Positions 1 through 2,561 of a stretch of DNA of 2,561 nt are shown here, in pieces. Source of the stretch: a virus (lineage: Duplodnaviria > Heunggongvirae > Uroviricota > Caudoviricetes); the IMG/VR virus record IMGVR_UViG_2778261535_000016; one strand, written 5' to 3'. The position numbers and the translations under genes were made by a program. The stretch's first letter is position 1. Every line of letters begins with the position of its first letter. The notes beneath the pieces were generated by a model. The model was given only the letters and a program-made list of their open reading frames with translations, searched no databases and had not been told where the DNA came from.

Positions 1-564
1 GTACCAGATAACAGGCCAACTCAGATTTATGCTGTTTCAGGCTCAATAAACACCTCAGATGGTAGGGAAAAAAGCGACCCGCTAACTACGAGTGAACTCA
101 GTCTGAATATGTCCCCTGGTTATGAAGGTGATGCAATTTTGGATGCATGGGGAGATATCAGGATCGTAGCTTTTCGCTGGCTTGCGGCCGTCAGAGAAAA
201 GGGAGATGGTGCCCGCTGGCATTTTGGTGTCATAGCACAACAGGTAAGAGATACTTTTCTCGCACATGGGGTTGATGGAACCCGGTTTGGTCTTCTCTGT
301 TACGATGAATGGGATGATCAATACGAGCCAGTGATGGCGGTAAGGACGATTACTGAAGTTGTGGATGGTGTTGAAATTGAAAGGGAAGAAGAATACGAAA
401 CAGAAGAGCGAACTCTGGTACGCAAGGCCGGAAATAGGTGGGGGATTCGTGCTGACCAGTGTTTATGGCTTGAGTCTGCTTATTTGCGTAGAAGAATCGA
501 AAAAATAGAGTCACATCTTGCGGAGCTGAATAATTTGCTGAATCCGGAGGGGGGATCTAAGTAG
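1..564 (+). CDS. 3' portion of a larger gene whose 5' end lies outside the window; probable phage tail fiber/tailspike C-terminal domain resembling an S74-type intramolecular chaperone (auto-cleaving) domain
   Basis: Frame 1 is open from base 1 with no stop until TAG at 562-564; the ORF track starts at the first ATG (109) but the frame continues upstream. The translation contains ...FGVIAQQVRD... and a C-terminal ...YLRRRIEKIESHLAELNNLL helix-like segment, a pattern I associate with the chaperone-of-endosialidase (peptidase S74) C-terminal domains of tail fibers. The canonical Ser-Lys dyad cannot be confirmed by eye. An acidic stretch EIEREEEYETEE is present. Confidence 0.55.
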   Translation, partial: VPDNRPTQIYAVSGSINTSDGREKSDPLTTSELSLNMSPGYEGDAILDAWGDIRIVAFRWLAAVREKGDGARWHFGVIAQQVRDTFLAHGVDGTRFGLLCYDEWDDQYEPVMAVRTITEVVDGVEIEREEEYETEERTLVRKAGNRWGIRADQCLWLESAYLRRRIEKIESHLAELNNLLNPEGGSK

Positions 565-740
565 TCTGCTTGCTTATTGCACAGTACGTGAAGCTAATTC
601 AATTGTAACTGAGAGGAACACTAGACCATTTTCTAAACGTAATTTTCATTGCCGTAGAAGGTAGAAATACAGTGCTTTGAGGTAACTATTATTCATAAAT
701 GGTTTATTATGTGTGCGTCTTCAATAGTAAGGAGATTGTT
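565..740 (+). promoter_or_regulatory. AT-rich intergenic region upstream of the lysis cassette; probable site of the lysis-operon promoter and/or upstream terminator (no hexamers confidently assignable)
   Basis: 176 bp non-coding gap between the stop at 562-564 and the first lysis-gene start region. It is visibly more AT-rich than the flanking coding sequence and contains a near-tandem GTAGAA-g-GTAGAA at 654-666. No well-spaced sigma70 -35/-10 pair was found by eye. Confidence 0.3.
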
Positions 741-779
741 ATGCGTAATAAATGGTGTCCATTATGTCAGCTCATCTAA
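741..779 (+). other. 12-codon upstream ORF (MRNKWCPLCQLI) preceded by a consensus Shine-Dalgarno, overlapping the start of the first membrane-protein gene in a different frame
   Basis: AAGGAG at 729-734 followed after a 6-nt spacer by ATG at 741; frame 0 reads 12 codons to TAA at 777-779. The membrane-protein ORF begins at ATG 752 or 764 in frame 2, inside this mini-ORF. Confidence 0.3.
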
Positions 780-1168
780 CCACTGACCATCTAAATCAAT
801 GGCTTAGCATGAGCTCTTTTGCTGCTGTTATCGTAGGCGTTCCGCCAGAAGTGGCGCTCGGTGCTTTGGCTGGCGCGGTGATTTTTGTTACCTCTGCAGT
901 AGAGTACCCCATCCGTCGCCGGGTGCTCCTGTCGATGCTCAGCTTTCTTTGCGGCCTTCTCTTTTACAAACCAGCAGCATCAATTCTTATCGGCATAGCC
1001 AGCCTGATCCCTACCATCACGCAGGACTCTTTTGAAAAAGGGATTGTTTTCTCTGCAGGCGCATTCGTGTCAGCAATTGTCGCTGTGCGTATTGGTATAT
1101 GGCTCTATCACCGTTCCGATAATCCACGCGAGTTAATTCCGGGGAGAAAAGACGATGGTAACGCATGA
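752..1168 (+). CDS. putative holin: small polytopic membrane protein (138 aa, about 4 hydrophobic segments, charged C-terminal tail)
   Basis: Hydrophobic segments at roughly residues 18-50 (interrupted by PPE), 57-71, 75-89 and 97-119, followed by a hydrophilic charged tail [19 protein letters not shown]. GxxxG/small-xxx-small motifs (GALAG, SAGAFVSA) are present. Sits immediately upstream of, and co-oriented with, the endolysin. The start is ambiguous: ATG 752 (MVSIM...) or in-frame ATG 764 (MSAHL...). Confidence 0.6.
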   Translation: MVSIMSAHLTTDHLNQWLSMSSFAAVIVGVPPEVALGALAGAVIFVTSAVEYPIRRRVLLSMLSFLCGLLFYKPAASILIGIASLIPTITQDSFEKGIVFSAGAFVSAIVAVRIGIWLYHRSDNPRELIPGRKDDGNA

Positions 1169-1463
1169 GTTTTTTTTGCTTATCACCAATGCAGTTATTT
1201 GCACTGGCATAGCAATTCGCGTTGTCACATTCCGGCGTAACGGCTCTCAACACAGAAGGTGGGGAGGATGGCTTGCTTATTTCCTGATTGTTGCTGCGGC
1301 CAGTATTCCTGTTCGTGTCGCCTATGCAATCTGGTTACGTACGCCAATGGCTGTGGATTTATCCGAGGTCATTATCAACGCTGTCATGCTAGCTGCGGTT
1401 ATTAAAACGCGCGGTAACGTCGTTCAGATTTTCAAAGTATCGAGGTCTAAACATGGAGATTAA
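1155..1463 (+). CDS. second small membrane protein (102 aa, 2-3 TMDs, basic C-terminus); holin/antiholin-like partner, role unresolved
   Basis: SD-like GGGGAG at 1141-1146 with an 8-nt spacer to ATG 1155. Overlaps the upstream gene by 14 nt and the endolysin start by 11 nt. Hydrophobic segments at about residues 6-24, 39-61 and 69-83, with a basic loop [12 protein letters not shown] and a basic tail [19 protein letters not shown]. Confidence 0.55.
1170..1177 (+). repeat. T8 homopolymer tract at the junction of the two membrane-protein genes (codons 6-8 of the second gene)
   Basis: Directly visible run of eight T at 1170-1177, immediately after the upstream gene's TGA stop (1166-1168), encoding F-F-L in the 1155 frame. 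Confidence 0.9.
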
Positions 1464-2082
1464 ACAATTCCAGCGAGCTGCTGGTATCAGCGAGTCACTG
1501 TCCGCACGCTGGTTCTCGCATATAACGTCTGCGATGAAAGAGTTTGGTATCAGCAAACCAGAAGATCAGGCTATGTTTATTGCTCAGGTCGGGCATGAGT
1601 CTGGAGGCTTCACCCGGTTGCAGGAGAATTTCAACTACAGCGTCAGCGGACTGGCTAACTTTGTTCGGGCTGGGCGTCTCACTCAGGGACAGGCCAACGC
1701 ATTGGGGCGACGCGCAGGCGAACCACCATTGCCACCTGAGCGCCAGAGAGCTATTGCCAATCTGGTGTACAGCAAACGCATGGGGAACAATGCCCCCGGC
1801 GATGGCTGGAATTACCGAGGTCGCGGACTTATCCAGATTACCGGTTTGAATAACTATCGTGACTGCGGAAACGGCTTGAAAGTGGACTTGCTGGAGAATC
1901 CTGAACTGCTGGCGCAGGACGAATACGCGGCTCGTAGCGCGGCGTGGTTCTTTGCCAGCAAAGGATGCATGAAGTATACCGGTGATATTGCACGTGTAAC
2001 TCTGATTATCAATGGTGGCCGGAACGGCATCGACGACCGGCGCGCGCGGTACGTCACTGCCAGTAAGGTGCTGGCTATATGA
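1453..2082 (+). CDS. endolysin, glycoside hydrolase family 19 (chitinase-like lysozyme) type; cytoplasmic, no signal peptide or SAR domain
   Basis: 209-aa product with the GH19 signature [12 protein letters not shown] (Glu49 codon at 1597-1599), a second Glu at position 58 (LQENFNY, codon 1624-1626), and [12 protein letters not shown] and INGG motifs. The N-terminus [16 protein letters not shown] is hydrophilic. GAGG at 1442-1445 lies 7 nt before the ATG. The stop TGA 2080-2082 overlaps the next start as ATGA. Confidence 0.92.
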
Positions 2083-2561
2083 TCTGGGAATTCGTAAAAG
2101 CATATTGGAAACAACTGCTTATCGTGGTGATGCTTGCTGCTCTGTTCATCGTCGGAGTGGTTGCCTGGAATATACACGGCAGTCGCCAGTACGATGCCGG
2201 GTATGCGCAGGCGGAAGAAGACCGCAAAGCCGAAGAAGACAAAGTTCGTCAGTACTACGAACAGGAGAAAGTGACCAATGAACGTGAAGCTCAGCAGAGG
2301 ATCGACCAGGCGCGCAATGATGCTCTTGATGCTGCCGCTCGTGCTGGCAGGTTGCAGCAACAACTCTTTGCCATCCGTGAGCAGCTCAGGCAGTATAACG
2401 CCATTGTCGGCGCTGGGACGTCAGCCGCAGACACCGGAGTTTTGCTTGCCGACGTGCTCAGCAAATCTCTCGAGAGAAACAGACAACTGGCAGAGTATGC
2501 TGACCGGGCAGCCGAAGCCGGAAGAGTCTGCGAAAAACAGTATGACACCCTGACAAGATAG
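2079..2561 (+). CDS. Rz: i-spanin (Rz-like): N-terminal transmembrane anchor plus periplasmic coiled-coil domain
   Basis: 160-aa product with a single N-terminal hydrophobic segment [18 protein letters not shown] (residues about 13-30), then an Ala/Glu/Gln/Arg-rich sequence typical of a coiled coil, and a Cys near the C-terminus (RVCEKQYD). ATG 2079 overlaps the endolysin stop (ATGA). Contains an embedded lipoprotein ORF in the +1 frame. Ends at TAG 2559-2561. Confidence 0.85.
2278..2553 (+). CDS. Rz1: o-spanin (Rz1-like) outer-membrane lipoprotein, entirely embedded in the +1 frame of the i-spanin gene
   Basis: AGGAG at 2263-2267, 10 nt before ATG 2278. Product [26 protein letters not shown]... 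has a basic n-region, hydrophobic h-region and lipobox L-A-G-C (Cys26 codon 2353-2355). Ser at +2 (not Asp) is consistent with outer-membrane sorting. The 66-aa mature part is Pro/Ser-rich with two further Cys (C56, C60). Confidence 0.85.
   Translation: MNVKLSRGSTRRAMMLLMLPLVLAGCSNNSLPSVSSSGSITPLSALGRQPQTPEFCLPTCSANLSRETDNWQSMLTGQPKPEESAKNSMTP

Follow-up and report, generated by a model that had tools for sequence, protein, structure and literature searches.

Two overlapping genes for small membrane proteins, located directly upstream of an endolysin gene in a 2,561-nucleotide stretch of tailed-phage DNA (Caudoviricetes; IMG/VR record IMGVR_UViG_2778261535_000016; the whole stretch is referred to below as the window), were characterised by profile searches, comparison of gene order and analysis of ribosome-binding sites. 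The two proteins, ORF1 (open reading frame 1, 764..1168, plus strand) and ORF2 (1155..1463, plus strand), are, as far as can be read from sequence, a two-protein holin system. Both matched holin families, and both were assigned to the lysis machinery because their genes were always found together across many unrelated phages. We propose that ORF2 is the principal hole-former and ORF1 a partner made at a lower level, either an antiholin or a co-subunit, an assignment to which we give about an even chance of being right.

Holin families and predicted topology

As originally called, ORF1 ran from 752 to 1168 on the plus strand and encoded 138 amino acids. The window differs from epsilon15 and phiV10 in carrying this additional in-frame ATG at 752, which is not conserved and reads ACG in both phages and in the nearest E. 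coli prophage. Because these relatives carry ACG there, and because annotated homologs begin at the ATG that corresponds to 764, ORF1 most likely starts at 764 and is 134 amino acids long. The lengths given in the original prediction were thus kept for the second protein (102 amino acids) and revised for the first (134 instead of 138).

Both proteins scored above the curated gathering thresholds of holin families. ORF1 matched PF16931 (Phage_holin_8) with 43 bits (E = 5.7e-11, residues 21-124; gathering threshold 26.4 bits) and phrog_198, labelled 'holin' (E = 9.5e-41). ORF2 matched PF05449 (Phage_holin_3_7, formerly DUF754) over its full length with 94.2 bits (E = 5.1e-27, profile positions 2-80 of 80; gathering threshold 25.4 bits) and phrog_217, also labelled 'holin' (E = 1.5e-35). 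The original prediction had been unable to name a holin family for either protein and had proposed a profile check, which supplied one for each. With hundreds of homologs in conserved synteny, both reading frames are far beyond chance. Paralogy between the two families was not detectable (hhalign probability 4%), and the idea that PF16931 and PF05449 are remote paralogs was discarded on that value.

Topology was predicted from hydropathy and the positive-inside rule. Each protein has three hydrophobic segments, predicted to be transmembrane domains (TMDs), in an N-out/C-in orientation, with an arginine-rich cytoplasmic loop after the first TMD (EYPIRRR in ORF1) and a charged C-terminal tail; the first hydrophobic segment of ORF1 is long. 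For both proteins this is the predicted layout of a class I-like holin, and both show the features of the holin class: small size, TMDs, a charged hydrophilic C-terminal tail and a gene beside that of the endolysin. The earlier description of two small multi-TMD proteins with charged C-terminal tails directly upstream of the endolysin was confirmed, as both reading frames exist on the plus strand with three predicted TMDs each. Conserved small-xxx-small (GxxxG-type) motifs were found in the TMDs of ORF1, and the motifs NAxIC, FRRxGxxHR and RGNV were conserved in ORF2. The AlphaFold2 models were of low confidence (mean predicted local distance difference test, pLDDT, of 63 for ORF1 and 61 for ORF2); the ORF1 helices were interrupted at Pro-Pro-Glu and Lys-Pro, ORF2 was modelled as three long helices, and both models were compatible with three TMDs.

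An eight-T run (GAGTTTTTTTTGC) lies at 1173-1185 of the window, in codons 6-8 of ORF2, where phiV10 and epsilon15 encode THELLLL. Judged by this comparison the run is not conserved and is probably incidental, and it is a potential hotspot for slippage or sequencing error. One Joint Genome Institute (JGI) record tags an ORF1 homolog 'involved in response to NO', a single automatic label.

Conserved pairing and partner endolysins

Tblastn searches with ORF2 returned 229 phage records from hosts including Ralstonia, Klebsiella, Pseudomonas, Salmonella, Burkholderia, Shewanella and Aeromonas, among others, and ORF1 was detectable in just 37. Thirteen loci were fetched for inspection: Hafnia yong2, Ralstonia RSA1, Klebsiella Pylas, Salmonella TR2, Burkholderia Mana, Pseudomonas BR313c and FBPa47, Shewanella M16-3, Escherichia HK639, Klebsiella Seifer, Pectobacterium MA12, Aeromonas LPM4 and Pseudomonas phiCTX. 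In 13/13 the DUF754 gene was immediately preceded by a gene of 117-140 amino acids. The upstream partner passed the PF16931 threshold in 15/15 cases (twelve of these loci plus the window, phiV10 and epsilon15), and orf9 of phiCTX passed it too. The order PF16931, PF05449, endolysin recurs in 13 annotated phages from at least six virus groups, and the pair is held by Uetakevirus, Peduoviridae (P2-like), Schitoviridae (N4-like, virulent), Casjensviridae, lambdoid and D3-like phages. At the junction between the two genes, 16 annotated diverse loci ranged from an overlap of 14 nucleotides to a gap of 2 nucleotides. In the window ORF1 and ORF2 overlap by 14 nucleotides, and ORF2 overlaps the start of the endolysin gene by 11.

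Viral contigs were then sampled, and all open reading frames at each locus were scored with hidden Markov models (HMMs) from the alignments of both families. Seeds came from either family in three clades, with an additional ORF2-family seed from Pylas. Both genes were found in the same order at 430/430 loci with room for them, a count that represents fewer distinct contigs, as the samples from the two family seeds share many of them. For the seeds of the ORF2 family the result was 78/78 (RSA1 ORF13), 79/79 (phiCTX orf10), 79/79 (HK639_68) and 2/2 (Pylas gp76), and for those of the ORF1 family 79/79 (RSA1 ORF12), 33/33 (phiCTX orf9) and 80/80 (HK639_67).

An exhaustive profile search (E ≤ 1e-3) gave 215 clusters of the ORF1 family at 50% identity, nearly all of them with proteins of 100-140 amino acids. 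Nine clusters, mostly among the most divergent, were looked up; one was at a contig edge, and in the remaining 8/8 with room an ORF2-family gene was next downstream, recognised by a Pfam hit or by our own HMM. Conversely, the weakest tblastn hits of the ORF2 family had an ORF1-family gene upstream in 4/4. No solo copy of either gene was seen among the 430 viral-contig loci, the eight divergent representatives, the four weakest hits and the annotated phages.

Fusions of the two genes were rare among the 215 ORF1-family representatives. In P0082 (232 amino acids; a cluster of 21 member sequences from 2 contigs), the loss of 1 nucleotide from the A-run that precedes the start of ORF2 (window ~1147-1150) fuses ORF1 in frame to ORF2. 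This fusion was rejected as evidence of interaction, since a C-terminus on the cytoplasmic side would have to connect to an N-terminus in the periplasm; its probable origin is prophage decay or an assembly error. P0241 (247 amino acids) was likewise set aside as a natural fusion, as it resembles an over-extended gene call.

The endolysin of the window (1453..2082, plus strand; PF00182, phrog_181) is a soluble GH19 enzyme, closely homologous to the SPN1S endolysin, whose structure is solved (4OK7; E = 8e-116). The maximum 17-residue hydropathy of its N-terminus is 0.27, leaving no hydrophobic, signal or signal-anchor-release (SAR) segment, and the claim that the endolysin is cytoplasmic held. 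A pinholin would be indicated by an N-terminal SAR or signal sequence on the endolysin, and the window endolysin has neither. Among the other 13 lineages with an endolysin downstream, the corresponding maximum was at most 1.10, and no TMD or SAR segment was found. Among the partner endolysins, at least five unrelated families are represented (GH19, GH24, GH108 with PG_binding_3, PF11860 muramidase with or without PG_binding_1, and Amidase_3). Because the pair is the constant part of a cassette that serves interchangeable soluble endolysins, it is predicted to supply a canonical, large-hole holin function and not that of a pinholin; on the same sequence features, the endolysin of the window is predicted to need a large-hole holin to reach the cell wall.

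The endolysin gene was next after the pair in almost every sampled locus, the exceptions being BR313c and FBPa47 (Pseudomonas, D3-like), where no recognisable endolysin gene lies directly downstream. In BR313c the next gene encodes a PF18894 'putative phage metallopeptidase' (locus L009, 2798-3421). In FBPa47 several small hypothetical genes follow (locus L015, 2767-3495), and the one scanned (119 amino acids) had no Pfam match. These two phages may encode their endolysin elsewhere, or have one of a type not yet described. On a contig of GCA_001105985.1, a gene with an AcrIF11-type ADP-ribosyltransferase (anti-CRISPR) domain (locus L461, 1304-1789) was found on the opposite strand of a lambdoid prophage, just upstream of a PF16931/PF05449/GH19 cassette and downstream of the Q antiterminator gene.

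Roles of the two proteins

The strength of the Shine-Dalgarno (SD) sequence was the one computed feature that separated the two genes. Pairing with the anti-SD sequence was stronger for the ORF2-family gene in 20/22 loci, which amount to about 17 independent clades (mean -9.7 versus -6.2 kcal/mol; Wilcoxon p = 2.6e-4). In the window, the SD of ORF2 (GGGGAG, 1141..1146, plus strand) lies within the 3' end of ORF1, 8 nucleotides before the ATG at 1155. This placement of the ORF2 SD inside the ORF1 coding sequence was seen at the 22 related loci, with GGAGG in most lineages, and in the window the SD encodes the C-terminal glycine of ORF1. The near-invariant C-terminal glycine, or 'RGG', of the PF16931 family is apparently explained by this overlap, and its conservation may be at the nucleotide rather than the protein level.

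ORF1's own SD in the window is very weak (-2.8 kcal/mol). The sole strong SD upstream of ORF1, AAGGAG at 729-734, serves an out-of-frame ATG at 741, which opens a mini-ORF of 12 codons (MRNKWCPLCQLI followed by a stop codon; 741..779, plus strand) that was read from the sequence and overlaps the ORF1 start. Both elements lie within an RNA hairpin (699..756, plus strand), the strong SD in or beside its apical loop and the ATG in its stem. The hairpin was identified by RNA folding, by the consensus fold of four relatives and from the annotation of the epsilon15 record, where a ribonuclease III processing site is predicted at this position. It has 19 pairs, two of them with compensatory changes, which is modest support, as the four relatives are closely grouped. 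The mini-ORF keeps its SD and ATG, though not its encoded peptide, in phiV10, in epsilon15 and in an E. coli prophage; in phiV10 the mini-ORF ends 2 nucleotides ahead of the ORF1 ATG. From this arrangement the mini-ORF may be a leader or reinitiation device that couples or limits translation of ORF1.

Because the SDs of the ORF2 family are stronger, and because ORF1's own SD is weak and lies behind the hairpin and the mini-ORF, production of ORF2 is probably the greater and that of ORF1 limited. Such a pattern is expected where one protein is a structural holin and its partner is regulatory or limiting. In addition, the endolysin gene was always adjoined by the ORF2-family gene and never by that of the ORF1 family.

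The scheme that we propose draws on what the analysis showed, namely family membership, predicted topology, constant pairing and order of the genes, soluble partner endolysins and unequal SD strength; which protein forms the hole, their physical interaction, the expression ratio and the triggering are what we infer. ORF1, ORF2 and the endolysin would be synthesised late from one translationally coupled unit, and both membrane proteins would insert in the inner membrane with three TMDs in the N-out/C-in orientation. ORF2, whose ribosome-binding site is the stronger and whose gene adjoins that of the endolysin, would accumulate as the main holin and would trigger at a critical concentration or upon loss of membrane potential, forming holes that pass the folded 23-kDa endolysin. 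ORF1, present at a lower level, would bind ORF2 in the membrane and set the timing, as an antiholin or as an essential co-subunit. The Rz/Rz1 spanins would then disrupt the outer membrane. The two proteins would in this way act as a conserved two-protein holin module that times the release of the soluble GH19 endolysin.

Three other explanations were weighed against this scheme. The strongest of them, which we regard as possible though less likely than the scheme above, is an obligate two-component holin, in which ORF1 and ORF2 form a heteromer and neither alone makes endolysin-sized holes. Two-gene holins are reported from Bacillus phage SPP1 (gp24.1/gp26) and from PBSX (XhlA/XhlB). The lack of solo copies even in very divergent lineages suits an obligate heteromer, as does the fixed order of frames that overlap or nearly abut (14-nucleotide overlap to 2-nucleotide gap), which would favour coupled translation; the pair also travels as one piece among phages whose endolysins differ, and both families diverge at the same rate. 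Co-occurrence alone is non-discriminating, however, since separate antiholins such as lysA of P2 are also stably kept in their phage groups, and the systematic SD difference suggests that the two proteins are made in unequal amounts. An extension of this explanation holds that PF16931/PF05449 is an obligate heteromeric holin widespread in Gram-negative phages, that the common annotations ('holin' with 'membrane protein', or 'holin' with 'antiholin') are mechanistically wrong because neither protein would form holes by itself, and that the hairpin and mini-ORF of epsilon15-like phages make ORF1 the limiting, timing-determining subunit; we consider it slightly less probable again.

Reversed roles, with ORF1 as the hole-forming holin and ORF2 as antiholin or regulator, appear unlikely. 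ORF1 has a class I-like topology, small-xxx-small motifs in its TMDs and a charged C-terminal tail, it is also named a holin by PGAP and PHROGs, and it comes first in the cassette; the holin gene is the first gene of the lysis cassette in lambda and P2. Its ribosome-binding site is weaker in 20/22 loci, though, the endolysin gene is abutted by ORF2 and not by ORF1 in every locus, and earlier annotators mostly picked the DUF754 protein as the holin. It is very improbable that ORF1 is unrelated to lysis and merely adjoins the lysis genes, serving to exclude superinfection, to modify the O-antigen or the surface, or in some other moron function, an option which the original prediction had raised. 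Epsilon15-like phages do carry serotype-conversion genes close by, and a homolog bears the single automatic JGI label given above. The pair is nevertheless locked to the endolysin in the sampled lineages: a PF05449 gene always directly follows the ORF1-family gene, and an endolysin gene almost always comes next, in temperate and virulent phages of many hosts, which range from Pseudomonas to Shewanella and include those of the virulent N4-like group. ORF1 moreover matches a holin family, PADLOC models at E ≤ 0.1 gave no match for ORF1 or ORF2, and the genes for serotype conversion in epsilon15 and phiV10 are distinct from it, lie on the other strand and are absent from the window.

Several points weigh against ORF2 as the principal hole-former with ORF1 as its lower-level partner. 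SD strength is a mere proxy for protein level, translational coupling may equalise output, and the number of independent clades behind the comparison is smaller than the number of loci. The third TMD of ORF2 is short, with just 12-15 apolar residues, and the structural models are of low confidence (pLDDT 61-63). Since both proteins share the same class I-like topology and carry oligomerisation-type motifs, the opposite division of roles could apply. Strict co-occurrence is explained by an obligate heteromer no less well than by an antiholin that can be dispensed with. Divergence of the two families is nearly equal (identities of 29% and 32%), and a mirror-tree comparison, with a correlation of r = 0.19 among distant pairs, was uninformative. 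Published role assignments are all bioinformatic and mutually inconsistent. The assignment proposed here agrees with one made earlier for Burkholderia P2-like phages, in which the upstream gene was named 'putative antiholin' and the DUF754 gene 'holin' (Lynch et al. 2010, PMC3091744; Roszniowski et al. 2016, PMC5247547). RefSeq labels the two 'membrane protein' and 'holin', PGAP uses 'putative holin' and 'phage holin family protein', and Center for Phage Technology (CPT) annotators call both 'holin or antiholin class I'. No functional experiment on PF16931 or PF05449 was found in the searchable literature under Pfam, InterPro, PHROG, legacy or phage names. The original prediction had called these genes the least characterised part of the window, which is apt for such experiments and does not apply to family membership.

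The lysis cassette and known holin systems

The window is the lysis cassette of an epsilon15/phiV10-like (Uetakevirus-type) podophage or prophage. By megablast it shares 82-95% DNA identity with the lysis cassettes of epsilon15, phiV10, SPN1S, vB_EcoP_ZX5 and related phages, and matching prophages were found in 564/5,426 complete E. coli genomes. Ahead of the cassette lies the 3' part of a gene for a tailspike or tail fibre (109-564, plus strand), with an intramolecular chaperone domain of the Peptidase_S74 type (PF13884, phrog_1171); the counterpart of this gene is marked as an incomplete pseudogene in E. coli strain 85.0412. A spacer of 187 nucleotides (565-751) separates the gene from ORF1 in plus-strand order. 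Downstream of the endolysin gene lie an Rz-type i-spanin of the DUF2514 family (2079..2561, plus strand; 160 amino acids with an N-terminal TMD; PF10721, E = 1.4e-45; phrog_312) and, in another frame inside it, an Rz1-type o-spanin lipoprotein (2278..2553, plus strand; phrog_11621, E = 5.6e-41; annotated in phiV10 as phiV10p30a) with the lipobox LAGC in its translation. A promoter and terminator scan of 500-1500 gave sites no more numerous than in shuffled sequence.

The same order of ORF1, ORF2, GH19 endolysin and Rz with embedded Rz1 is present in epsilon15 (gp23/gp24), phiV10 (p27/p28), SPN1S, vB_EcoP_ZX5 and E. coli prophages. Protein identity to the epsilon15/phiV10-type cassettes is ~90-96% for ORF1 and 82-100% for ORF2. 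The two phages differ from the window at the junction between the tailspike gene and the holin pair, where phiV10 has an O-acetyltransferase gene and epsilon15 an O-antigen ligase-family gene and a polymerase-inhibitor gene, all on the opposite strand. The window, with its spacer, and the nearest E. coli prophages are without serotype-conversion genes at this junction. Because such cargo is present in phiV10 and epsilon15 and absent from the window and the nearest prophages, it appears to be a variable insertion.

Among P2-like phages, the scanned loci of Mana, RSA1 and phiCTX (orf9/orf10) carry the same Pfam pair in unchanged order, its two members overlapping or abutting, and have the endolysin and spanin genes directly downstream. 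The P2-like pairs of Burkholderia, Ralstonia and Pseudomonas are just 20-40% identical to that of the window, occur with a myovirus virion and accompany PG_binding_1 plus PF11860 muramidase endolysins instead of GH19; their roles are predicted. For KS5, KS14, KL3 and AP3 the same layout, a DUF754 holin after an upstream TMD protein, is taken from the papers alone (PMC3091744, PMC5247547).

The pair of the P2-like phages occupies the slot of Y-K-lysA in P2, between the tail gene X and lysB, and the sizes of Y (a holin of ~93 amino acids) and LysA (a multi-TMD partner of ~141 amino acids) are similar to those of the pair. In P2 itself, Y is a class I holin and LysA an antiholin-like timing protein, both experimentally characterised. 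Unlike in the window, the endolysin gene of P2 lies between the two genes, and no homology of either protein to Y or LysA was detectable (hhalign probabilities of 0.2-1.2% in all four comparisons). The likeness to S105/S107 of lambda consists of a class I-like layout with three TMDs, N-out/C-in, a cytoplasmic tail that is charged, and a soluble endolysin dependent on large holes. In lambda, however, the antiholin comes from an alternative start of the same gene, with a lysine between the methionine codons, whereas the window has two separate, non-homologous genes. A dual start of this kind was not found in ORF1, where the sequence M1-V-S-I-M5 has no lysine or arginine between the methionine codons and M1 is not conserved.

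The P. aeruginosa pyocin holin Hol (PA0614) works with the GH19 lytic enzyme PA0629, and their co-expression causes lysis (PMC10710452). PA0614 was considered as a homolog of phiCTX orf9 (PF16931), which would have made the ORF1 family the validated holin. This was rejected, as PA0614 belongs to Transporter Classification (TC) class 1.E.20, described as 'not related to' the phiCTX type, TC 1.E.56 (Ghequire et al., PMC4684702), and the homolog search with phiCTX orf9 returned phiCTX-like prophage copies only, with no ubiquitous P. aeruginosa relative. Because PA0614 is of a different holin family, its experimental data do not carry over to ORF1 or ORF2.

Annotation and literature have contained these genes, the families and the holin/antiholin reading since 2005-2010, and the window itself is ordinary and adds little, having annotated homologs in well-known phages. 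The pair is common, invariably paired in the samples and mobile among at least five endolysin types, and its database labels conflict. Settling which protein is the holin would correct the annotation of hundreds of phage and prophage genomes, including those of E. coli O157 and Salmonella phages that serve in typing and biocontrol. A two-component holin, if that is what the pair proves to be, might add a Gram-negative example.

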